This document shows, in pieces, positions 5,002-64,000 of a DNA stretch of 64,000 nucleotides. The stretch comes from Verrucomicrobiota bacterium (GTDB lineage Bacteria; Verrucomicrobiota; Verrucomicrobiia; Limisphaerales; Palsa-1400). The DNA is taken from the NCBI GenBank assembly GCA_049510745.1, contig JBEKYR010000001.1:124392-188391 (forward strand), written 5' to 3'. The notes under the pieces were generated by a model that saw nothing but the letters and a program-made list of their open reading frames with translations, ran no database searches and was not told the origin of the DNA. Made by a program: the position numbers and the translations under genes. Positions within the stretch are counted from its first letter, which is position 1, and every line of letters starts with the position of its first letter.

Positions 5002-6027
5002 TTATGCGCGAATCGCATACACAATAATGGAGATGATGAGGATGGCCACCACCGAAAACAACAAAATGGTGGCGACAACGTTGTCAGGGTTATTTTTTGA
5101 TTTTTTCGCCAAACTTGGCTGCATCGGCCCGCTGGACGATTTGTCGGTTATAACTGCGCGACGTGTTGTCATATCTACAACAATATGCCCTTCAAGCTGC
5201 CATTGCAATTTCCCATCTTTATCTTTTGTCATCTGCGGAAACGCGGTGAACGGTTCCGCTTGGTATCCAAATTGGACGGGCTGCAAACGCAAATCCCAAA
5301 GTTGCGCATTTACCTCCTTTGGCGTCACACCGATAGCAGTACGCTGCCCCGTCATCCAATTCTCATCTACCACAAGATTAGGCACCGTTGCAAAATTACC
5401 GGGCAGCATATCTGGGATCGGGCAATCGCACGTTATCCAATCAGGAGAATCACTAAGCCTGTCCTCGAACCAAGGCGGGTTGAATTTGAGCTTGAGACTT
5501 TTTAAGACAGTTACCTTTATAGTCCCTTGTTTAATTTCGTTGGATGAGATGTTTTTTAATACAAATTCTGCTTTGATATTTGTGGTGCCTGGAACTACCG
5601 GCACTATCACAAATCCCTTTACTTCCTCATCCTCAATCGCCACCCTGTTGAGCCTAGACGAAAAATCAAACCGTGGATCGGTGAGCATAAGCGGAAAGCC
5701 TTTGGATTCGGAGAGAGCAAAGCCTAGTTCTAAACTTGGACGGCTGGGTGAAGGCAGCGCGGATTTGCCCCACTCCAACCAACAAAGAAGCGAGCAGAAA
5801 AGTAATGCAAAGGCAATTATCGAGTCTCCCCACCTTTTTGCTGGTTTAGGCTCAGTGCCGGTGTTAATAAGCTCTGCCTCCAGTGCTTTTCCGCAGCAAA
5901 ATAGTGCTCCAAACGCGAAGCATATCGCCAAAGGAATTGCTCTATGAAGATCATACAAAATACCACCGGCAAATCCGAAAGCAGCAAAAACCGAACCACA
6001 CACAATAATATTTCTTGGATACTTCAT
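5002..6027 (-). CDS. Hypothetical membrane protein (orphan, AT-richer cassette)
   Basis: 341-aa ORF in a stretch clearly lower in GC than its flanks. Three N-terminal and one C-terminal hydrophobic helices. No family recognised. Confidence 0.6.
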   Translation of the reverse strand: MKYPRNIIVCGSVFAAFGFAGGILYDLHRAIPLAICFAFGALFCCGKALEAELINTGTEPKPAKRWGDSIIAFALLFCSLLCWLEWGKSALPSPSRPSLELGFALSESKGFPLMLTDPRFDFSSRLNRVAIEDEEVKGFVIVPVVPGTTNIKAEFVLKNISSNEIKQGTIKVTVLKSLKLKFNPPWFEDRLSDSPDWITCDCPIPDMLPGNFATVPNLVVDENWMTGQRTAIGVTPKEVNAQLWDLRLQPVQFGYQAEPFTAFPQMTKDKDGKLQWQLEGHIVVDMTTRRAVITDKSSSGPMQPSLAKKSKNNPDNVVATILLFSVVAILIISIIVYAIRA

Positions 6028-8476: not shown

Positions 8477-8499
8477 TAACTTAACCACAGGAGAACCTA

Positions 8500-8793
8500 A
8501 TGAGTCAAGAAGCACTGGGCATGGTCGAAACCAAGGGGTACGTGGGCAGCGTCGAAGCCAGCGACGCCATGGTCAAGGCGGCCAATGTCACCCTGGTCAA
8601 AACAATACCCATCGGCGGCGGATTGATCACCGTCTTTGCCACCGGCGACGTCGGCAGCGTCAAAGCGGCCGTCGATGCCGGGGCCAAGGCGGCCGGCAAG
8701 GTGGGCGAACTGGTCAGTTCCCACGTCCTGGCCCGCCCGCATGAAGACCTGATGAAGGTGTTCATCGGCGAACCGGCCAAAAAGCAATCCTGA
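8500..8793 (+). CDS. BMC-H shell protein (Pfam00936-type hexamer)
   Basis: [27 protein letters not shown]...[13 protein letters not shown]...HVLARPH is a canonical BMC domain. Confidence 0.93.
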
Positions 8794-8813
8794 ACCTTTA
8801 ACCCACATTTGAT

Positions 8814-9092
8814 ATGGCACAACAAGCAATCGGCATGATCGAAACAAAGGGCCTCTGCGCGCTGATGGAAGCGACGGACGCCGCGCTCAAGGCGGCCAAC
8901 GTCCAGTTTGTCGGCTGGGAAAAAATCGGCAGCGGCTATGTCACCGTCTTTTTCCGCGGGGACGTGGCCGCCGTCAAGGCCGCGACCGACGTGGGAGTGG
9001 CGGCGGCGGCGCAAGTCGGCAGCGTGGTCAGCGTGCAGGTCATTCCCCGTCCGCACGAGGGCCTGGCCGGCCTGGGCAAGTGGCTGCAATAG
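8814..9092 (+). CDS. BMC-H shell protein
   Basis: [27 protein letters not shown]...[13 protein letters not shown]...QVIPRPH. Confidence 0.93.
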
Positions 9093-9097
9093 GGTGA

Positions 9098-10282
9098 ATG
9101 AAGATACTCGTCGCCAACCTTGGCTCGACGTCGCTGAAATTTCGCCTGTTCGATTTTTCCGGCGGCCAGGAGCGTCTGCTCACGCGTGGCGGCATCGAGC
9201 GCGTGACGGATTATGCCGGGGCCATCGATTCGTGTCTGGACCAACTGCGGCAGGGGGCGTGGATCGAGCGGGAAAGCGATTTGGCGGCAGTGGGCTTCAA
9301 AACGATTATGGCGCGCGGGATCAACGGCTGTGTCCGCCTGGAGGATGGCGTGGTGCGGGCCATGGAGGAGTACAACACAGTCGCGCCCGCGCACAATCCG
9401 CCCTATATCACAGGCATTCGTCTGTTTGCCAAACGCATGCCCGGCGTGCCTTTGGTCGGCCTCTTTGAAACGGCGTTTTACCAGCGGGCGCCGGAGGCGG
9501 CGATGCGCTATGCTGTGCCCGAAGCCTGGCATCAGGCCGGGGTGCGCCGGTGGGGTTTTCACGGCGCCAGCCATAAATTCATCGCCGAACGCTCGGCGGA
9601 ATTGCTCGGGCGCGAAGACGTGGCCCAACGGGCGCGCCTGCTTTACGTGAAGGGCGGCGAAACCCCGGTGCGCTCCCCTGCCCTGCGCGTCATCTCCTGT
9701 CATCTGGGCGGCAGTTCGTCGGTCACCGGCATCCGCAACGGCGTGGCCATCGGCAACAGTATGGGATTCAGCCCGCAATCGGGATTGCCGCAGAACAATC
9801 GCGTGGGCGACCTGGACGCTTTTGCACTGCCGTATGTGATGCGGGCGACCGACGTGACGCTGGCGGAGGCCGGGCGCCAACTGTGCGAGGAATCGGGCCT
9901 CAAGGCCCTTTCGGGCGGATACAACGACATTCGCGACATCGCGGCGCAGGCCGCCCAAGGCAACGCCCGCGCGCAATTGGCGCTGGATGTTTTTGTGGAC
10001 AGCGCGCGCCATTGGATCGGCGCGTATTATCTGCAACTCAACGGCATCGACGCGCTGGTTTTCACCGCCGGCATCGGCGAAAACCGCGCCGAGTTGCGGG
10101 CGGCCATCTGCCGCGATCTGGACCAACTGGGCATCGTCTTGGACGCCGGCCTGAACGAGGGCGCGCGCGCCCAGGAGGCGGTGATCAGCGGGCCGGAATC
10201 GCGCGTCAAAGTCATGATCATTCCCGCCAACGAAGAATTGGTCGTCGCCCGCGAGGTGCGCCGCTTTCTTCAATCTAATTAA
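9098..10282 (+). CDS. ackA: Acetate (acyl) kinase
   Basis: MKILVANLGSTSLKF, SCHLGGSSSVTGI and FTAGIGEN motifs. 394 aa, embedded between shell genes. Confidence 0.92.
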   Translation: MKILVANLGSTSLKFRLFDFSGGQERLLTRGGIERVTDYAGAIDSCLDQLRQGAWIERESDLAAVGFKTIMARGINGCVRLEDGVVRAMEEYNTVAPAHNPPYITGIRLFAKRMPGVPLVGLFETAFYQRAPEAAMRYAVPEAWHQAGVRRWGFHGASHKFIAERSAELLGREDVAQRARLLYVKGGETPVRSPALRVISCHLGGSSSVTGIRNGVAIGNSMGFSPQSGLPQNNRVGDLDAFALPYVMRATDVTLAEAGRQLCEESGLKALSGGYNDIRDIAAQAAQGNARAQLALDVFVDSARHWIGAYYLQLNGIDALVFTAGIGENRAELRAAICRDLDQLGIVLDAGLNEGARAQEAVISGPESRVKVMIIPANEELVVAREVRRFLQSN

Positions 10283-10324
10283 ACCCATCACCCCATTACC
10301 GAACCTGAAAGGAAAGAAAACATT

Positions 10325-10618
10325 ATGGCACATCAAGCAATCGGACTCATTGAAACGCGCGGATTGATCGCCCTGGTCGAGGGCACCGACGCCATGCTCA
10401 AGGCGGCCAACGTCGAACTGGCCGGCCCGATGCAGCAAGTCGGCAACGCCCTGGTCACGGCCGTGGTCGTGGGCGACGTGGCGGCCGTCAAGGCCGCGAC
10501 CGACGCCGGCGCGCAGGCGATCAAGGCGAACAAGGGCGAACTGGTCAGCGTCCATGTCATCGCCCGGCCGCACTCGGAGGTGGAAGCCGTGCTGCCGCAC
10601 AAACCGCAAGGGAAATAG
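10325..10618 (+). CDS. BMC-H shell protein
   Basis: QAIGLIETRGLIALVEGTDAMLKAANV...[13 protein letters not shown]...HVIARPH. Confidence 0.93.
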   Translation: MAHQAIGLIETRGLIALVEGTDAMLKAANVELAGPMQQVGNALVTAVVVGDVAAVKAATDAGAQAIKANKGELVSVHVIARPHSEVEAVLPHKPQGK

Positions 10619-26151: not shown

Positions 26152-28218
26152 ATGCAAGTGACCTCTCTCCTGAGCCGCCGCGAAGACGAGCATGACCACG
26201 CGCACGGGGAATCGTGCGCCAATGGCGGCCACGACCACGACCACGCCGTGCTGCCGCTGGCGCAAACGTTGATTGGCCTGGTCTTTGTCCTCAATTCGTT
26301 TGTCGTCAACTGGTTCTTTTCCGACAACGCCAACCCGATCGCGGACGGCAGCGCGATGATCGGGGCGATCATCCTCGGCTACCCGATTGTCTGGACGGCC
26401 ATCAATGATTTGCGCCGGGGTCTGCTCACGACCAACGAACTGGTGGCCCTGGCCGTGGTGGCTTCCTTTGGCTCGGCGAATCTCCTGGTGGTTTCCTTTG
26501 GCTCGGCGAATGTCCAAGTGGGCGGCTACCAGCAGGCGGGCGTCATCGCCTTCTTCATGTTGATGGGCCAAATCATTGAAACGCGCACGGCCGAAGGCGC
26601 CCGCGCTTCCATCGAATCCCTCATCAAGCTCACTCCGCCCAAAGCCCGCCGCGTCACCAAAGACGGCGAAGAGGAGATCGAAACGAAGCTCCTCGCCGTG
26701 GGCGACGTTATTCGAGTTCGTCCCGGAGACAATGTCGCGGCCGACGGGGTGATTGTGACCGGCCAGGGTTCCTTCAATCAGGCCACCATCACCGGCGAGT
26801 CCTTGCCGGTCGATAAAAAGCCCGGGGACGAAGTCTTTGCCGGGACGCAAAACCTGACGGGAGCGCTGGAAATCCGGGTGACGCGGGCGGGGCAGGACAC
26901 GACGTTGGGCAAGGTGCGGGAACTGATCCTGGCGGCGGAGAAAACCAAGCTGCCGCTGATGCGGATCATCGACCAGTACATGGGCTATTATACGCCGCTG
27001 GTGCTGCTGATCGGCGCATTGGTGTGGGCGTTCACCTCCGATATGAGCCGCGTGATCACGGTCCTTATTGTCTCGTGTCCGTGCGCTTTCATTCTCGCCA
27101 CACCCAGCGCGATGGTCGCGGCCCTGTCGGCCGCCGCGCGGCTGGGCATCCTAATCAAAAACGTCGGCGACATCGAGTTGGCGGCGCGCATCAACGCATT
27201 TGTATTTGACAAAACGGGCACTCTCACCACGGGACGGCTGGCCGTCAGCCGCCTTCAGCCCATGAACGGCGCGACGGCGGCGGAACTGCTCCGCGTGGCG
27301 GGTTCGGCCGAGAAATACAGCAACCATCCCACGGCCAAGGCGCTGGCCCAGTTGGCGGGCGAAGCCGGCGTGCCCCTTTGCGAGCCGAAGGATTTCGCCG
27401 AAGCCGCCGGCCGGGGCGTCAGCGCGCAGGTCGAAGGGGCCAGGGTGCTGGTGGGCCGCGCCCAGTGGCTCAAGGAACAAGGCATCGCGGAGGATTTTCT
27501 CAAATCCGTCGATCTCAATGAAACGGAGGGTTTCAGCCTGATCTTCGTGGCCCGCGACGGCAAATGCCTCGGGTGGGTCGGCCTGCAAGACCAAACCCGC
27601 TCCGAAGCCCGCGAGGCGCTGGCCGATCTGAAATCCACCGGCGTGCGCCGCATCGCCATGATTTCCGGCGACCGCCAGCCGGTGGCCACCCGCGTCGCGC
27701 GCGAAATCGGCTGCGAAGAAGTCATGGGCGAATGCCTCCCGCAGAACAAAGTGGATTTTGTCCGCCAAATAAAAGCCAAAGGCTACCGCGTGGCTGTCGT
27801 CGGCGACGGCGTCAACGACGCGCCCGCGCTGGCGGCCGGCGACCTGGGCATCGCCATGGGCGCGGCGGGCAGCGAAGTGGCCATCCACAGCGCCACCATC
27901 GCGCTGATGAACAACGATCTGCGCCGCCTGCCGTTCCTGGTCCGGCTCTCGCGCCAGACGCGGTCGGTCATCAACCAGAATTTCCTTGTCGGCATTGTGT
28001 TTGTCATCGGCGGCCTGGTTTTGGCCTCGCTCAAGTACATCAATCCGATCACCGCCGCCGTCCTCCACGTCATCGGTTCGCTCATTGTTGTCTTCAACAG
28101 CGCCCGGCTCGTGCGGCAGGGCGAGGAGTTGGAACCGCACCTGGCCGCCGCGCCGGAAGCGCCCGGCCCATCGGCGCCAACCCCGCCGTCTCTGACGCCC
28201 AAAGCTGTGCCTGCATGA
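26152..28218 (+). CDS. Heavy-metal-translocating P1B-type ATPase
   Basis: His-rich N-terminus HDHAHGESCANGGHDHDH, TGES (ITGESLPV), CPC (SCPCAFILATPSA), DKTGTLT and GDGVNDAPAL. Metal specificity cannot be called by eye. Confidence 0.92.
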   Translation: MQVTSLLSRREDEHDHAHGESCANGGHDHDHAVLPLAQTLIGLVFVLNSFVVNWFFSDNANPIADGSAMIGAIILGYPIVWTAINDLRRGLLTTNELVALAVVASFGSANLLVVSFGSANVQVGGYQQAGVIAFFMLMGQIIETRTAEGARASIESLIKLTPPKARRVTKDGEEEIETKLLAVGDVIRVRPGDNVAADGVIVTGQGSFNQATITGESLPVDKKPGDEVFAGTQNLTGALEIRVTRAGQDTTLGKVRELILAAEKTKLPLMRIIDQYMGYYTPLVLLIGALVWAFTSDMSRVITVLIVSCPCAFILATPSAMVAALSAAARLGILIKNVGDIELAARINAFVFDKTGTLTTGRLAVSRLQPMNGATAAELLRVAGSAEKYSNHPTAKALAQLAGEAGVPLCEPKDFAEAAGRGVSAQVEGARVLVGRAQWLKEQGIAEDFLKSVDLNETEGFSLIFVARDGKCLGWVGLQDQTRSEAREALADLKSTGVRRIAMISGDRQPVATRVAREIGCEEVMGECLPQNKVDFVRQIKAKGYRVAVVGDGVNDAPALAAGDLGIAMGAAGSEVAIHSATIALMNNDLRRLPFLVRLSRQTRSVINQNFLVGIVFVIGGLVLASLKYINPITAAVLHVIGSLIVVFNSARLVRQGEELEPHLAAAPEAPGPSAPTPPSLTPKAVPA

Positions 28219-57469: not shown

Positions 57470-58453
57470 TTACCCCCCCACTTCCGCCTTGGCTTCGGCG
57501 GCCAGCGGCGTGCTCAGGTAACGTTCCCCGGTCGAGCAGGCCAGCGTCACGATCATTTTCCCCTTGTTCTCGGGCCGTCTGGCCACCTGCAATGCCGCCG
57601 TCACGTTGGCCCCCGTCGAAATGCCCACCAGCAACCCCTCCTCCTTCGCCAGCCGCCGCGCCATGGCAAACGACTCGTCGTTGCTGACCTGCACGCACTC
57701 GACGATCTGCGGATTCCCCTTGCTGTCCTTCAAATGCAAGTTCTTGGGTATGAACCCCGCGCCCGTCCCTTGGATCTTGTGCGGCCCCGGCTTGAGCGGC
57801 TGTCCGGCCAGGCATTGCGAGATCACCGGCGAATCCTTCGGTTCCACTGCAATGGCCTGAAACGACGGTTTCCGCGCCTTGATGACCTCCACGCATCCGG
57901 TAATCGTCCCCCCGGTCCCGACCGCCGACACCAAAATATCGACTTTGCCGTCCGTATCGCTCCAAATCTCTTCCGCTGTCGTTTTGCGATGGATTTCCGG
58001 GTTGGCCGGATTCTCGAATTGCTGTGGAATCCAGGAATTGGGCGTTTCGCGGGCCACTTGTTCGGCGCGGGCGATGGCCCCTTTCATCCCTTCGCTGCCC
58101 GGCGTCAGCACCAGTTTGGCGCCCAACAGCGCCAGCAACGTCCGCCGCTCCAGCGACATCGTGTCGGGCATGGTCAAAATCAGTTTGTACCCCTTGGCGG
58201 CGGCGACAAAGGCCAGGGCGATGCCGGTATTGCCGCTGGTCGGCTCAATGATGACCGTGTCCTTCTTGACGATGCCGCGCCGTTCGGCGTCCTCGATCAT
58301 CGCCATGCCGATGCGGTCCTTGACGCTGCCGAGCGGATTGAAAAACTCGCATTTGAGCAGGACGGTGGCATCAACCCCCTCGGTGACCCGGTTAAGGCGA
58401 ACCAGGGGGGTGCGTCCGACCGTTTCGACGATATTCTTATAGATGTGTGCCAT
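57470..58453 (-). CDS. cysK: Cysteine synthase A (O-acetylserine sulfhydrylase)
   Basis: VGRTPLVRL, the PLP lysine context NPLGSVKDR, and [11 protein letters not shown]. 327 aa. Confidence 0.92.
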
Positions 58454-58553
58454 GAGAAAATGAACAGTTCGTGTTTTGTCACTTTACGCGGGGATATTGT
58501 CCGATTGGCCGCCAAGGGCAAGAACTTTTTACAATCGTAATCATATTATCATT

Positions 58554-60956
58554 TTAGGGGTCCGACGCATTTGCCCCCGGAATTGTCCCCCCGAATCCCC
58601 CTCTCCCTGCCAGAAACCAGCCGGCGGCCAGGACCAGCATTCCCCCCGCGCTCAGCATCACGCCAATCCGCAGACTCTCCGGACGATAGGAAAAGCCTAT
58701 CGTGGATTTTCCCGCGGGAAGCGCGACCGCGCGGAAGTTGTAATCCGCCCGGAAGATCGGCGCCGGCTCGCCGTTCACGGTGGCGGACCAGCCGGGGAAG
58801 CAGGTGTCCAGCAACAGGAGATAACCGGGACGCGGGAGGGACGCGTCAATGCTGATGTCATCCGGCTCATAGGAGACGATGCGCACGGAGCCGGCGGCAT
58901 TTGTCCCGGCGTAGTTGTCGGCGACCGGGTGCTTCGGCGGCGCCGGCTGATCTTCGAGGAGCAAAACCTGGCGCGGGTCAAATCCGGGCGCGGAGACGCG
59001 GGCAAGCACGTCGGCGCGATCCGGCAACACTTGATAATCGTACACCAGCAGGGCGCGGTCGTGGCGCCGTTTGTAGCGGTAGATTGCAATCTCCTTTGAA
59101 TAGACCAACTCAAACATGTCCGGGTTGACGGTTTGGGCCGTGGGTGACAGCACGTATTTTACAGCCAGGAGCGGGAACGTCTTTGGCCAGTCCTTCACGT
59201 CCGCGTAGAAATAGTACTCGCCCGCCCGTCCGGTGATCAACTCCTCATAGCGTCGCACCGCCATGTAATCGCATCCTCGCGCGTCACTGAGGCCGAAAAC
59301 TTCCGCGCAGTCCGGCTCCAACATCGTCCCGCCCCCGAAAATTCTAAAAAGCGAGTCGTCCTTTTGCAGCCATTCTATCGCCGGGGTCCGCGGATAGTAG
59401 CGGTCGCGGGTGATCGCCGGGTTGAAGCCAGTTCCGAACCAGAGCAGATCCGCCGCGGTCCAACTCAAACATACCAGCGTCGGCGCCCAGCCATTTCGAG
59501 GCGCGGACCATAAGCCCAAAAGGACCGCGACCATCATTCCACCGGCCAGAATAAGAAACTGCCGGCGGAGAAAGGCCCAGTGGGAGGTATCCAACGTCGG
59601 AAGTTTCGCGCCCGTGGCCAGCCAAAGCCAAATCATCGCCGCTCCCACCACCGCGCAAAAACCAACCGTCACCATCAGCGTGCCTCGATCAGTCCTCCTT
59701 CGGCTCAATTCATCCCAGCCCAACCCGGCCAGAACCGCCACGCTGAAGCCCACCATGAGAAGCAGGCGCATCTCGTCCACGTCGCGCAGAATGGGCAACT
59801 CCCTGACCAGGGCCGGAAAGGGCGGCGCGCCGCACATCACCAGGACGCAGCCCAGGGCGAGAAACGCATAGAATTTGGTCAATGCGCATCGCCGGAGCGC
59901 GATGCCGCAGGCCGCCAGAAACAGCGGCAGGATTCCCACGTATCCCGTTCTCTCATTGAAATTGCCCGGCTGTCTCCAGCCCAGCAGTTGGGGCAGGTCC
60001 TCAAATCCTTTGACCGGATTGCCCAACGCATTGGGCAGCAGAAAATGAATCAGCGACTTTGGGTTGAGGTGAAATGCCCATCGTTGCGCCAAGGCCGAGG
60101 CCTGAGCGGCCGAGCTTTCGCGGTAATACTCCAGAAAAGGCAGTATCTGGGGCGCTGCCAGGAGCAATCCAACCGCCACCGAACCGGCCAGCAATCCTGC
60201 CCGGAGAAACCCCTGCTCGCGGCGATGCTCAATGAGCCGGAAAAGGAAATAGAGCACCACGACCATCGTGACATGGATGGCGGTCGACGGGTGGCCTCCC
60301 AGGATCATGCAGGCAAAGGCGAACGCAAAACCGCCCCAGGCGCGAAGAGCGGGCGCCGCCATCGCATTCGCCCGCCCGTCCCTGAATGATTTCTCCACGA
60401 AGTAGAGCAACAGCGGCAGCCACATCGCCGCGTTGACGTGCGGATGCCCCAGCCAGACAATCATAAAACCCGACAGGCAAAAGACCAGCCCTGCCAGAAA
60501 GGCCGCCGCGTGCGACACCCCCAGCAGCCGGACGTAAAGCAGCGTGAACCATCCGGCCAGGCAAAGTTTTAGAAATGCGCCCGGTCCACTCGCCGAAAAT
60601 GGGTCCAGCGGCGACAACAGCAGGCGAATCGGAAAGAGCAGCGCCCCTTGAATGGCGCCGAGATTGGGCGCGCCACAGCACAGGCTCGGGTTCCACAGGG
60701 GAAATCTCTTTTGCTGGTGAACGAACTCCTGGGTCGGAAGGAAAACCGAGTATTGATCGACCAGCAGAGGGTTCGACGGACGGATGCCCTCATGCCACGG
60801 CGGCCAGTTCAGGATTCCATCCGCCGGAACCAATCCTTTGCCGGAAAACAATGACTCGTGCAACAGGATGAGCACCACGCCCGCCAGCGCCGCAAACCAG
60901 CAAAGCTCGCGGGTTCTCGCGGACGCCAAAGCCTTTCGGGATAGTTCTGCAATCAT
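58554..60956 (-). CDS. YfhO-family polytopic membrane protein (putative glycosyl-transfer/envelope biogenesis)
   Basis: 800 aa. Many TM helices, a periplasmic C-terminal domain and a final TM helix. The overall pattern resembles YfhO-family proteins. Confidence 0.65.
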   Translation of the reverse strand: MIAELSRKALASARTRELCWFAALAGVVLILLHESLFSGKGLVPADGILNWPPWHEGIRPSNPLLVDQYSVFLPTQEFVHQQKRFPLWNPSLCCGAPNLGAIQGALLFPIRLLLSPLDPFSASGPGAFLKLCLAGWFTLLYVRLLGVSHAAAFLAGLVFCLSGFMIVWLGHPHVNAAMWLPLLLYFVEKSFRDGRANAMAAPALRAWGGFAFAFACMILGGHPSTAIHVTMVVVLYFLFRLIEHRREQGFLRAGLLAGSVAVGLLLAAPQILPFLEYYRESSAAQASALAQRWAFHLNPKSLIHFLLPNALGNPVKGFEDLPQLLGWRQPGNFNERTGYVGILPLFLAACGIALRRCALTKFYAFLALGCVLVMCGAPPFPALVRELPILRDVDEMRLLLMVGFSVAVLAGLGWDELSRRRTDRGTLMVTVGFCAVVGAAMIWLWLATGAKLPTLDTSHWAFLRRQFLILAGGMMVAVLLGLWSAPRNGWAPTLVCLSWTAADLLWFGTGFNPAITRDRYYPRTPAIEWLQKDDSLFRIFGGGTMLEPDCAEVFGLSDARGCDYMAVRRYEELITGRAGEYYFYADVKDWPKTFPLLAVKYVLSPTAQTVNPDMFELVYSKEIAIYRYKRRHDRALLVYDYQVLPDRADVLARVSAPGFDPRQVLLLEDQPAPPKHPVADNYAGTNAAGSVRIVSYEPDDISIDASLPRPGYLLLLDTCFPGWSATVNGEPAPIFRADYNFRAVALPAGKSTIGFSYRPESLRIGVMLSAGGMLVLAAGWFLAGRGGFGGTIPGANASDP

Positions 60957-61039
60957 TCTGCAATCATGGTTGCCCGGCGTATTCGGCGGTCACCGCCCTG
61001 AATTTGATTCGCCCGCCTCCCCCGCCATGCCAATCGCCT
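60954..61039. repeat. Direct repeat DR-A flanking the ParE TA cassette
   Basis: cattctgcaatcatggttgcccggcgtattcggcggtcaccgccctgaatttgattcgcccgcctcccccgccatgccaatcgcct. About 92% identical by eye to 61599-61686. It is preceded by a tandem 11-nt tctgcaatcat duplication (60946-60967). Confidence 0.85.
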
Positions 61040-61056
61040 TCCGCTTGTTCACAAAC

Positions 61057-61353
61057 TTAAAATAGTCTCCGGCGAATCGCCTTTGGATCCTGCCGCAGAT
61101 CCAAGACCGCCGCGATGATGATTCGCGACGCTTGCACCTGGTAGAAAATACCGTACGGAAAGTCCCGGATCAGCATACGGCGATACGGACCACCATAAAC
61201 TGGCGCAATTTCAGGGTGCCGCCGCAGAAGACTCAACGCAGCATCCAATTGACCCATAAACAGTTCACCCCGGCCGGCCTGATAATCTTCGTAACGATTA
61301 AATGCCGCCTGAATGTCAAGATCGGCCTGCAGCAGCAGGAGAAGATCGATCAT
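61057..61353 (-). CDS. RelE/ParE-family toxin
   Basis: MIDLLLLLQADLDIQAAF...YRRMLIRDFPYGIFYQVQASRIIIAAVLDLRQDP is a typical ParE-like sequence. Start chosen at the internal ATG at 61353, which overlaps the antitoxin stop. Confidence 0.8.
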   Translation of the reverse strand: MIDLLLLLQADLDIQAAFNRYEDYQAGRGELFMGQLDAALSLLRRHPEIAPVYGGPYRRMLIRDFPYGIFYQVQASRIIIAAVLDLRQDPKAIRRRLF

Positions 61354-61574
61354 GACCGTGGGCCGAGGATTCGCTCCTTGACCGCTTCCCAAGTGGTGAA
61401 TTGATCTGGATGCTGGCGAAAGTGCTCCATCCGACGGTCCAATCCCTCGATGATCTCGCGCGCGACGGGCACTTGCGAGGGATTGGCCTCGAGATCGTTC
61501 CACAGTTCCGACACAAACATCAGCTTTTCTGAAGCGGAAAGCCGCTGCACCTCCGGAAACTTCTCAAGAATCAT
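61350..61574 (-). CDS. Addiction-module antitoxin component
   Basis: MILEKFPEVQRLSASEKLMFVSELWNDLEA matches the putative addiction module component pattern (Ls..eRl.l...Lw.sL). 74 aa. Confidence 0.75.
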   Translation of the reverse strand: MILEKFPEVQRLSASEKLMFVSELWNDLEANPSQVPVAREIIEGLDRRMEHFRQHPDQFTTWEAVKERILGPRS

Positions 61575-61598
61575 GGGCCTAATATAGCGGTTCGCGAC

Positions 61599-61686
61599 CA
61601 TTCTGCAATCATGGATTGCCCGGCGTAATTGGCGGTCACCGCCCTGAATTTGGTTCGCCCGCCTCCCCCGCCACCCCAATCGCCTC
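61599..61686. repeat. Direct repeat DR-B (includes the 3' end of the dehydrogenase gene)
   Basis: cattctgcaatcatggattgcccggcgtaattggcggtcaccgccctgaatttggttcgcccgcctcccccgccaccccaatcgcct. Confidence 0.85.
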
Positions 61687-62901
61687 AATATGCCCGTCGC
61701 TGGTCAGCACGTAAAGTTCCCCGTCCAGGTCTTGCGCGAAACTGGTGATGTTTTTCGGCTGGTCCAGCAGCGTGCCGTATTGGGTCACTTTGCCGTGCTT
61801 CCACCGAAATCCCCAAATGGTGCCCAGGGCGTAGTCGCCATAAACATAAATCCCGCGCAAGGCCGGATGCTTTGCCCCCCGATAAACATACCCGCCTATC
61901 ACGCAGGCCCCGATGCTGTGATGACGAAACTTCGTCTCCGCCAGAAGATTCGTCTTGTGCGGATACTCGATCACCGGCTCAACGTAGCGCGCCCCTTCGG
62001 GACCGGGTTTGAAATGGTGCGCCCCTTCCCGCACGCTCCAGCCGTAGTTGCCCCCTTTGACAATCAAGTCTATCTCCTCCCATTTGTCCTGGCCCACGTC
62101 CCCCGCCCACATCTCCCCCGTCGCCCGGTCCCAACTGTAACGCCACGGATTGCGCAGCCCATAAGCCCAGATTTCCTTCCGCGCGCTGTTCTCCCAAAAA
62201 TCCGGCTCGCGCATGAAGGGATTGTCCGCCGGCAGACCGTAAGGCAGCGTCTCCCGCGCCCCGCGCAGGCCGATGACCGACCGGCTGTCAACGTCGATGC
62301 GCAGGATTTTGCCCTGCAACGCCGAAGTGTTTTGGCCAGTCCCGAATTCATCATTCTGCCCCCCGCCGTCGCCCACGCCGAGGTAGAGAAAACCATCGGG
62401 GCCAAAACTCGCCAGGCCCCCCTTATGCACCTCGGACGGCTGCGGAATCTCCAGCAAAATGTGCTCCGAATTGGTGTCCGCGCGGTCGGGATTGCCGGCG
62501 GAAACTTTCATTTCACTGACCACCGTGCGCCGCGGATTTTGCTGGCAGTAGAAAATGTAAAACAGCCCGTTGCTGCTGAAACGCGGATGAAACGCCAGGC
62601 TCAACAACCCCTGTTCCAGCGAAGCGTGCGGTTTGCGGTCCTCCAAGTTGAGAAACTCCCGCGCCTCCGCCCCATCGGTCCCCTTGCGCGCCAGCATCAC
62701 GCGCCCGCCCTGCTCCACGATGGCGCAGCGCCCGGAGCCATCCGGCGCCTCCTCCATCCAAACCAGGTCACTGCATTGCAACCTGGGAAAAACCGGGCGC
62801 AGCGTAATTTTGGGAAGCGGCTGGGCCACGGCGGCAATGGCTGCCAGCAGCGCGAACAGCGCCTGGCCAAAGATGATTAACCGCCGGTTCACCGCGCCCA
62901 A
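61636..62901 (-). CDS. PQQ-dependent sugar dehydrogenase (soluble glucose/sorbosone dehydrogenase family)
   Basis: Signal peptide. GLLSLAFHPRFSSNGLFYIFY, HKGGLASFGPDGFLYLGVGDGG, GKILRIDVD, YGLRNPWRYSWD and GGNYGWSVREG. Confidence 0.88.
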   Translation of the reverse strand: MGAVNRRLIIFGQALFALLAAIAAVAQPLPKITLRPVFPRLQCSDLVWMEEAPDGSGRCAIVEQGGRVMLARKGTDGAEAREFLNLEDRKPHASLEQGLLSLAFHPRFSSNGLFYIFYCQQNPRRTVVSEMKVSAGNPDRADTNSEHILLEIPQPSEVHKGGLASFGPDGFLYLGVGDGGGQNDEFGTGQNTSALQGKILRIDVDSRSVIGLRGARETLPYGLPADNPFMREPDFWENSARKEIWAYGLRNPWRYSWDRATGEMWAGDVGQDKWEEIDLIVKGGNYGWSVREGAHHFKPGPEGARYVEPVIEYPHKTNLLAETKFRHHSIGACVIGGYVYRGAKHPALRGIYVYGDYALGTIWGFRWKHGKVTQYGTLLDQPKNITSFAQDLDGELYVLTSDGHIEAIGVAGEAGEPNSGR

Positions 62902-62959
62902 GGTGGACTATTCCACCCCAAAGTTCAACCCGTCTTCGGCGCAGAGTTTCCGACTCCCA

Positions 62960-63220
62960 TTACGCGGCGACAACTTGCACGCGGGGGGCAAAACCAAGCC
63001 TGCCGAGAAGCTCCTCACAATCTTCCCAGGCGAGCCCAAACGCGCGAACATCCGCAACTCCAAGCCGGGCAATCACGTGGGAAAGCGTCTCGGCGTCGCG
63101 CTCGGCCAACTCGCCGTCCATTAAGGCGCGCTCCGCCCAATCCACCAACTGATCCAGCGTGATCTCGTGATGAAGGTACGCGGCAATCTGTTCGGCAACG
63201 ATTTGTTTCGTGATCGTCAC
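62960..63220 (-). CDS. Small hypothetical helical protein (GTG start)
   Basis: 86-aa ORF MTITKQIVAEQIAAYLHHEITLDQLVDWAERALMDGEL... with an AGGA-like sequence ~8 nt upstream. Family not recognised. Confidence 0.45.
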   Translation of the reverse strand: MTITKQIVAEQIAAYLHHEITLDQLVDWAERALMDGELAERDAETLSHVIARLGVADVRAFGLAWEDCEELLGRLGFAPRVQVVAA

Positions 63221-63241
63221 GGCATCATCCTACACTTTCTG

Positions 63242-63439
63242 GTGGCCTTTATCCACCGGGAATTTTTCGTGCGTCTCGACCAACCGCCCCGCGTCATCAT
63301 AAATCTCCTGCCAGAAGCGCAGCGTGGTTTCCTTCCGGAGTTTGGCGGCCGGGTGTTGCGTGTGGTGGTAAACAAGACGGTTGTTCCCGAACGGGTCGTG
63401 ACTGTATATTTCGACCGCACAATGAAAGGCAAACTATGA
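63242..63439 (+). CDS. Possible DUF4258-like toxin partner of the DUF2283 gene
   Basis: C-terminus GGRVLRVVVNKTVVPERVVTVYFDR resembles DUF4258 endings. Its stop overlaps the DUF2283 start (ATGA). The start (GTG 63242) is a guess, and an in-register antisense ORF is also open. Confidence 0.4.
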   Translation: MAFIHREFFVRLDQPPRVIINLLPEAQRGFLPEFGGRVLRVVVNKTVVPERVVTVYFDRTMKGKL

Positions 63440-63636
63440 GATTGAAAGTTGACCGTGAAGCCGACGCGCTTTATCTCCGCTTGGACGACTCGCCAATCAT
63501 CGAGTCCGAAGAGGTGTCGCCGGGCGTGGTGTTGGACTTCAACGGGCAAAATCAGGTGGTCGGCGTCGAGATGCTCAACCTCTCCAAACGCGCGCCGGGG
63601 CTTAATCTCAAGGAATTCCAGTTCCAAACGGCGTGA
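63436..63636 (+). CDS. DUF2283-family small protein (antitoxin-like)
   Basis: MRLKVDREADALYLRLDDSPIIESEEVSPGVVLDFNGQNQVVGVEMLNLSKR is a typical DUF2283 sequence. Confidence 0.8.
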   Translation: MRLKVDREADALYLRLDDSPIIESEEVSPGVVLDFNGQNQVVGVEMLNLSKRAPGLNLKEFQFQTA

Positions 63637-63698
63637 CACGTTCAGCTTCGGCGGCGGAAACCGTCCGGCCAGCTTCAAAGGGTTTTGTGCCGTAAAAT

Positions 63699-63800
63699 CA
63701 CTTGCACTTAGAGCCGGACAATACTACGGTTTGACCCGGACGACGCCCGCATAATTTTAGTCTTTATCCTCTTCCTGAGAGAAAGACGGGGATTAAGGGC
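63699..63800. repeat. Repeat modules R3 (63699-63748) and inverted R4 (63757-63800)
   Basis: cacttgcacttagagccggacaatactacggtttgacccggacgacgc matches 4408-4458. The reverse complement of 63757-63800 matches 6757-6803 (tctcaggaagagga core). Confidence 0.65.
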
Positions 63801-63821
63801 AAAACTGTACCGTCAGCTACC

Positions 63822-64000
63822 TCAATAGACCAGCACCAGGGCCACGGCGCTTTCCGCCTCTCGCTCCACGTCCTCGAATTTCCGGTCTTTGATCGGATTC
63901 GGCTCCGGGAGTTTCGCCGATATTTCCGGCAGGCTTTCCAACAAAACGTTCAACACAGAGCTTTTCACGGCGTAATTGACGCTTTGCGGCAAAGAGCCGG
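63822..64000 (-). CDS. 3' end of an unidentified gene running off the window
   Basis: The open frame on the minus strand to the window edge ends ...DRKFEDVEREAESAVALVLVY followed by a stop at 63822-63824. No family recognised. Confidence 0.3.
   Translation of the reverse strand, partial: GSLPQSVNYAVKSSVLNVLLESLPEISAKLPEPNPIKDRKFEDVEREAESAVALVLVY

Follow-up and report, generated by a model that had tools for sequence, protein, structure and literature searches.

The chromosomal movement of toxin-antitoxin (TA) modules is poorly understood because these modules carry no mobility genes of their own. Here, we describe a locus that we read as the scar of such a movement, i.e., a ParE/RelE-family toxin gene and its antitoxin gene enclosed between two long direct repeats (DR-A and DR-B), located between a dehydrogenase gene and yfhO in a 64,000-nucleotide stretch of the genome of a Verrucomicrobiota bacterium (contig JBEKYR010000001.1; hereafter, the window). 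Several described systems offer themselves for comparison. Transposons and insertion sequences (IS) generate target-site duplications of a fixed length of 2–14 bp, while the TA gene cassettes of integrons and superintegrons are bounded by attC sites, which are imperfect palindromes. In Campbell-type single crossovers and homology-facilitated illegitimate recombination, a homologous stretch brought in with the foreign DNA comes to flank the insert as two copies, with microhomology at the other joint and no element-encoded enzyme. Finally, the integration of e14 or phage 21 into the icd gene of E. coli leaves a 163-bp pseudo-icd' (PMC6379469), and relBE is described as truncating hokD in prophage Qin (Ramisetty & Santhosh 2016, as cited in PMC6379469).

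The locus consists of the following features, all on the minus strand, which encodes the four genes and was used for the repeat alignment:

61040–61598, minus strand: unique insert of 559 bp, a minimal TA cassette in the order 24 nt, antitoxin gene, toxin gene, 17 nt
61350–61574, minus strand: antitoxin, 74 amino acids, PF09720 (Unstab_antitox), E=5e-9, 36.5 bits for a cut-off of 23.3
61057–61353, minus strand: ParE/RelE-family toxin, 98 amino acids, PF05016, E=7e-7, 30.1 bits for a cut-off of 23
61599–61685 (87 nt), minus strand: DR-B, with the final 16 dehydrogenase codons and their stop codon (EAIGVAGEAGEPNSGR-stop), a 23-nt spacer and ATGATTGCAGAATG
60954–61039 (86 nt), minus strand: DR-A, with a ghost of the dehydrogenase tail (KAIGMAGEAGESNSGR-stop, its stop codon at 60990–60992), a 22-nt spacer and ATGATTGCAGAATG, the final ATG being the start codon of yfhO
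61636–62901, minus strand: GSDH, i.e., pyrroloquinoline quinone (PQQ)-dependent glucose/sorbosone dehydrogenase (DH), 421 amino acids, PF07995, E=2e-40
58554–60956, minus strand: YfhO-family membrane protein, 800 amino acids, PF09586

An earlier interpretation made from the letters of this DNA (the sequence-only reading) had noted that nothing but the TA pair lies between the repeats, and indeed the 559 bp hold the toxin and antitoxin genes alone. The antitoxin gene is immediately upstream of the toxin gene, the stop of the former and the start of the latter sharing a 4-nt ATGA overlap (61350–61353). By its Pfam families and by this ATGA coupling, the pair is predicted to form a type II TA module, whose toxin has 34 invariant columns in common with 23 homologues.

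When set against the systems above, the locus resembles known kinds of structure, namely a gene-end duplication of the icd/e14 type and the outcome of a Campbell-type single crossover. As at icd, the insert is bracketed by slightly diverged direct copies of a gene 3' end, one of which completes the gene while the other, beyond the insert, is a dead ghost (KAIGMAGEAGESNSGR-stop vs. EAIGVAGEAGEPNSGR-stop). In contrast to e14, the insert is only 559 bp long and devoid of an integrase gene, its duplication reaches from a gene end across a spacer into the start of the next gene, and there is no recurrent att site, the other cassettes of the family being found in unrelated sites. The likeness to a presumed Campbell-type integration lies in a homology duplicated on both sides combined with a short microhomology at the other joint. 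As for integron TA cassettes, the pair is compact, stand-alone and flanked by repeats, but these repeats copy coding and intergenic DNA of the locus itself instead of being imperfect palindromes, no integron integrase was found and the cassette has its own predicted promoter; an integron gene cassette was thus rejected on these grounds and for want of an attC-like fold. Similarly, IS and transposons also duplicate their target directly on both sides of the insert, yet the duplication amounts to 87 nt in the window and to 45 nt in L051 (a second locus of the same cassette family, see below), hence not to a fixed length, and neither terminal inverted repeats nor a transposase accompany it, which led us to discard IS, transposons and miniature inverted-repeat transposable elements alike. 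The locus shares with horizontally acquired chromosomal TA modules (e.g., relBE at hokD) a small module lying by or in resident genes and reshaping their ends without a mobility gene; it differs in that both neighbours were preserved by the 87-nt duplication and that the joints are still readable. A search of a literature library for TA cassettes bordered by long duplications of their target returned no direct precedent there. What is new here is that a 0.56-kb TA cassette without a recombinase combines a long duplication of its target with a joint lying in its own predicted promoter.

The repeat pair

The sequence-only reading had proposed that the two flanking segments are homologous and had called for a formal alignment, which bears the proposal out: DR-A and DR-B share 81 identities over 87 aligned positions (93.1%), with 5 mismatches and 1 single-base indel, the longest block without any difference being 22 nt. 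The Smith–Waterman score between the left and right flanks of the cassette is 145, against a maximum of 26 among 120 mismatched flank pairs, and just 1/184 same-genome pseudo-cassette controls reached a score of 60. The boundaries of the repeat are sharp at both ends; extending it beyond its 3' end is not significant (P ~0.11), and neither is its extension into the cassette promoter or into the yfhO codons. Moreover, the 22-mer and 20-mer cores of the repeat each occur exactly twice in the 64 kb (expected: 0.00–0.02), and DR-A/DR-B is the sole repeat pair of its kind in the window, where no further copy exists. An Rfam search of the repeat did not return any RNA family, and its predicted RNA fold is no better than those of shuffled sequences (z = -0.1 to -0.8). 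An assembly artefact or a chance similarity can be ruled out with near certainty, considering that the structure is present at 99.9–100% identity in eleven contigs whose assemblies are independent and come from different samples and pipelines, that the two copies differ at 6 positions and that the chance expectation is ~0.

Two observations tell which copy is native. First, the closest DH homologues end in ...DGHI(F/Y)AI(A/G)(A/V)AGE... (e.g., AIGVAGENP, AIGLAGEPGNR); second, the DNA alignment with the relative L015 crosses the DR-B boundary. Since the DR-B tail is thus the native one, DR-A is the ghost copy of the DH C-terminus that the sequence-only reading had recognised there, and the whole structure is what an insertion between DH and yfhO left behind at their junction. 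The Pfam domain of DH extends up to residue 403, while the repeat begins at residue 406, and the DH-tail differences between the ghost and DR-B (1 synonymous and 2 non-synonymous) fall in this weakly conserved tail. The sequence shows that DR-B keeps the DH C-terminus intact and supplies the -35 box of the predicted TA promoter, and that DR-A is a dead copy of the DH tail that keeps the original spacer and start context of yfhO. Altogether, the duplication leaves both neighbouring genes intact.

Insertion joints and predicted cassette promoter

Ninety-four loci with related cassettes (L017–L110) were fetched and the antitoxin and toxin genes were located in each of them; flanks and motifs were then compared across the 46 non-identical related cassettes for which both flanks were available. 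Conservation within the family is limited to a segment running from about -37 of the antitoxin ATG through the toxin stop, with an abrupt end on both sides, and the position of the antitoxin start codon is kept throughout. Upstream of the family antitoxins lies a conserved promoter-like motif, TTGCCAAA-16 nt-TATAnT-6 nt-ATG, in which TTGC stands exactly at -34 from the antitoxin ATG in 37/46 non-identical loci, as it does in the window. Such a spacing is typical of leaderless transcripts and would imply leaderless antitoxin mRNAs, the geometry being observed and the promoter function predicted from it. A scan for consensus sigma-70 promoters found nothing on the relevant strand, the family-derived promoter falling below the stringency of that scan. 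The corresponding features of the window are:

61603–61608 (-34 to -29), minus strand: predicted -35 box TTGCAG, inside DR-B and within the 11-mer ATGATTGCAGA
61581–61586 (-12 to -7), minus strand: predicted -10 box TATATT, in unique DNA, 6 nt 5' of the antitoxin ATG
60946–60956 (start of yfhO), 60957–60967 and 61602–61612, minus strand: the three copies of the 11-mer ATGATTGCAGA, the first two forming a tandem pair (60946–60967) at the DR-A/yfhO boundary
61571–61612, minus strand: 13-codon mini-ORF MIAEWSRTAILGP-stop, which begins at the 11-mer of DR-B and has an ATGA overlap with the antitoxin start

The predicted promoter of the cassette therefore straddles the repeat boundary, with its -35 box in DR-B and its -10 box in the unique part, and the last 10 nt of the repeat coincide exactly with the position of the promoter. 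Given that TTGC occupies -34 in the family and in the window alike, the left joint can be placed in the -35 box, where 8 nt (TTGCAGAA) are common to the cassette and to codons 2–4 of yfhO. The 11-mer of DR-B, which had been taken for a piece of the yfhO start, is indeed identical to that start, and it also coincides with the -35 box of the cassette itself. The right joint lies 17 nt beyond the toxin stop, where only AG is shared; here the cassette is joined to the repeated stretch, i.e., another copy of the last 16 DH codons, of the spacer and of the first 12–14 nt of yfhO.

The tandem pair of 11-mers at the DR-A/yfhO boundary, already noticed from the letters (tctgcaatcat on the forward strand), is present as described (60946–60956 and 60957–60967). 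Its upstream copy opens a mini-ORF, MIAE-stop (60953–60967, minus strand), of which the TGA overlaps the ATG of yfhO, while the YfhO protein is left unaltered by the extra 11-mer. Both this mini-ORF and MIAEWSRTAILGP-stop could reflect translational coupling on read-through transcripts, or chance.

Joints of this kind might also come from a single microhomology-mediated template-switching event in situ. The nascent strand would copy DNA from DH to yfhO ...TTGCAGAA, jump to the -35 box of a cassette located elsewhere, copy this cassette and re-prime ~85 nt upstream in the DH tail through a 2-nt microhomology (AG), the junction being copied again. Such an event does not need a recombinase, it agrees with the 8-nt identity at the left joint, the 2 nt at the right joint and the sharpness of both boundaries, and one more abortive switch would account for the extra 11-mer. 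Nevertheless, the copies would have been identical at birth, and their 7% divergence requires an old event followed by neither gene conversion nor deletion; furthermore, no second copy of the cassette is visible in the 64 kb.

The cassette family and the L051 parallel

Homologues of the toxin fall into 317 clusters and, among the 120 listed, identities range from 70 to 84%, except for one variant at 99%; all genome matches of the family (14/14) are in Verrucomicrobiota. The toxin-antitoxin pairing is as in the window in nearly all of the 94 related loci. In L095, L096, L099 and L102–L104, the toxin matches are broken or have a length that is not a multiple of three, whereas the antitoxin is intact, which suggests decaying toxin genes. 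Among the 46 distinct related cassettes, all of them from Verrucomicrobiota, neither a shared flanking sequence nor an adjoining GSDH or YfhO gene was found.

Convincing flanking duplications exist in 2/46 non-redundant loci, i.e., the window and L051. The other candidates were rejected: the flanking repeats of L040/42, L024, L044 and L093 have scores of 28–33, within the same-genome background, that of L073, present a third time in the same locus, is a generic motif, and that of L069 is a REP-like palindromic element. L051 is an independent parallel, in which a related cassette directly adjoins the der/engA stop codon (the gene being identified by Pfam) and a 45-nt piece of the der 3' coding region, which encodes RRAFGYEGCPLVLVP, the end of a KH-like domain, is duplicated across the cassette (251–295 and 950–994), with no integrase in view. 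All four nucleotide differences between these copies are synonymous (4/4), a pattern with P = 0.007 under pure neutral decay of one copy and with P ~0.04 by a rougher estimate in which the functional copy also evolves. Synonymous-only differences are expected for two functional alleles and suggest that such alleles were joined, as in the integration of e14 into icd: the L051 copies probably diverged as parts of working genes, and the resident and incoming ends of der would have been brought together by the insertion.

This parallel points to two alleles and not to in-situ copying, which together with the divergence of the repeats makes the template switch, in our view, a possible but rather unlikely origin for the locus. 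Put more precisely, the evidence from L051 favours an allelic version of events, whereas the data of the window fit an allelic and a template-switch origin alike.

Relatives and the DH/yfhO junction

The contigs L001–L010 and L111–L113 are 99.9–100% identical to the window (58296–64000) over up to 5.7 kb and stem from many different peat and soil metagenomes, which indicates a widespread and nearly clonal population. In L001/L002, what looked like a structural variant downstream of yfhO proved to be only a gene-call difference at a contig end and was discarded. Exact-protein look-ups with DH, the toxin, YfhO and the 99% toxin variant led only to the same filled locus (99.9–100% identity), while the 22-nt repeat core had 0 matches in a metagenome scan and was absent from all other fetched loci. 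In none of the 8 contexts from relatives (YfhO relatives at 70–77% identity, DH relatives at 77–79%) does DH lie next to yfhO. Hence, no empty site was found because the population is clonal and the relatives do not have the DH-yfhO junction.

The gene order in L015 is DH, two unrelated genes and PALP-Rho, without yfhO between them, while in the window PALP-Rho comes after yfhO. This suggests that yfhO moved into position between DH and PALP-Rho in the lineage of the window. Moreover, the YfhO of the window is devoid of the 10–15 residue N-terminal extension of its closest relatives: its homology to them starts from codons 6–8, just past the end of the repeat, and nothing in the relatives corresponds to its first ~5 residues (MIAEL) in the N-terminal alignment, even if YfhO N-termini are variable in general.

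These observations bear on a two-step origin in situ, in which the cassette would first have settled directly downstream of DH, followed by a tandem duplication of the segment running from the DH tail through the spacer and ATGA to the cassette, and then by a deletion. The latter would have removed the second cassette except for its first 8–10 nt, along with the original 5' end of yfhO, so that the start codon and codons 2–4 of yfhO were rebuilt from the DH spacer and the -35 box of the cassette. Such a scenario would explain the novel MIAEL start and the missing extension, as well as the exact match between the last 10 nt of the repeat and the promoter position, and it sits well with the order found in L015, which suggests that yfhO moved in within the lineage of the window. 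At the same time, it requires two or three separate rearrangements, the great variability of YfhO N-termini makes a lineage-specific MIAEL start nothing unusual, and there is no trace of a second cassette, the similarity beyond the repeat end not being significant. We consider the two-step route a serious rival, though not a probable one.

Mobility machinery

In this clade, the DNA upstream of yfhO is a hot-spot for integration. A tyrosine integrase and mobile-element genes lie directly upstream of yfhO in 3/6 close relatives examined, a tRNA-Thr(TGT) gene is found upstream of yfhO in L012 and L013, and L011 has only a tRNA 3' fragment there (5905–5935). The regions concerned are:

L011, 4644–6001: integrase region upstream of yfhO
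L012, 4566–6001: integrase region upstream of yfhO
L114, 3822–5001: integrase region upstream of yfhO
L013, 5846–5920: listed with the same hot-spot upstream of yfhO

At face value, this context speaks for a site-specific integrase having put in a larger element with an attP that mimicked the DH/yfhO junction, in which case the repeats would be attL and attR and the TA pair the last cargo left after an internal deletion. Duplication of a gene 3' end in direct repeats is what characterises the integration of e14/phage 21 into icd (PMC6379469), and the integrases of L011, L012 and L114 in the hot-spot, by a tRNA-Thr gene or a tRNA fragment, go in the same direction. On the other side, no recombinase domain was found in the Pfam tables for any gene within 6 kb on either side, and a tblastn search of the 64 kb with the integrases of two relatives, in itself a weak test, gave a best E-value of 0.57. 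The hot-spot of the relatives is a tRNA gene, whereas the window has none, and there are no inverted repeats at the ends of the insert. The repeat core occurs nowhere else, and no recurrent att core exists at the other insertions of the family, of which the 46 flanks are unrelated. A dedicated attP is implausible for a DH-yfhO junction restricted to this lineage, and an internal deletion would have needed to be exact on both sides to leave a promoter straddling the boundary and a spacer of 24 + 17 nt. Thus, among the usual features of integrative elements, the locus has the direct repeats bounding the insert, without the recombinase or the recurrent att core, and we deem an integrase-borne origin improbable.

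The same facts bear on two points of the sequence-only reading. Its proposal of an insertion at the DH/yfhO junction stands as far as the scar is concerned, but not the qualification of the repeats as att-like, in view of the missing recombinase, the unique core and the 46 unrelated flanks. Likewise, the view of the TA pair as the sole survivor of a larger cargo finds no support: the mere 24 + 17 nt of non-coding DNA left and a promoter that straddles the boundary fit a minimal cassette inserted as such, as opposed to the stump of a larger element.

Proposed route of insertion

We favour, with an even balance of confidence and doubt, an integrase-independent insertion in which the TA cassette was the sole cargo and in which homology or microhomology guided host recombination or repair. 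The cassette, which begins with its -35 box and ends at the toxin stop, would have been inserted between the 3' end of DH and yfhO by host recombination or repair, without a dedicated integrase or transposase. The incoming DNA would already have borne the ~85-nt junction beside the cassette, either as a small circle or as the 'filled' allele of a related strain, and recombination through this ~85-nt homology, Campbell-type or homology-facilitated, would have left that stretch in two copies, an outcome that a replicative template switch in situ would equally produce. The extra tandem 11-mer would most simply result from a separate slippage event. In the resulting arrangement, yfhO is probably transcribed by read-through from upstream (a terminator scan found no terminator-like site between the toxin gene and yfhO), and addiction to the TA module may counteract loss of the cassette through recombination between the repeats.

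Several points weigh against this integrase-independent insertion. The repeats have diverged by 7%, and their coding differences (1 synonymous and 2 non-synonymous) fit an allelic origin and in-situ decay alike. The extra tandem 11-mer by DR-A calls for a separate slippage step or for extra template switches. A flanking duplication is seen in 2/46 loci only and is thus not a regular signature of the family. There is no empty site for comparison, so that the order of events is deduced from the filled locus. Finally, the N-terminus of yfhO departs from that of its relatives precisely at the end of the repeat, and ATGATTGCAGAA may not be ancestral yfhO sequence.

Other features of the window

A few additional features were observed in the window. 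A second small TA-like pair lies 1.5 kb off the cassette (63167–63636, plus strand), in which an unannotated ORF of 65–90 amino acids overlaps a DUF2283 gene (63436–63636) by 4 nt. Just upstream of DH, an orphan gene of 86 amino acids (62960–63220, minus strand) is without a Pfam match. Farther away, diverged direct repeats of coding type (8499–10572; three copies, 64–73% identical) are probably paralogous genes, and a 30-nt tandem duplication is found at 26456–26515.

Significance

Most TA insertions are too old to show their joints, whereas here both are legible, one in the -35 box and the other in the duplicated gene end. The locus is accordingly a moderately interesting, legible record of the insertion of a TA module, within the limit set by the missing empty site. 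Its practical value is modest, in that it offers a model open to testing, together with defined sequences to look for at read level, and does not reveal a new system. The window and L051 together suggest that such cassettes can be put in place by host recombination through short homologies, with no damage to the genes on either side. Whether this extends to the family is doubtful for now, i.e., that the minimal promoter-to-stop TA cassettes of these Verrucomicrobiota spread without a recombinase of their own, by copy-in or recombination guided by homology or microhomology, with the -35 box usable as a joint. If so, their spread would leave gene-end duplications of variable length, such as the 87 nt observed here and the 45 nt at der in L051, and these scars would be readable records of the movement of TA modules.

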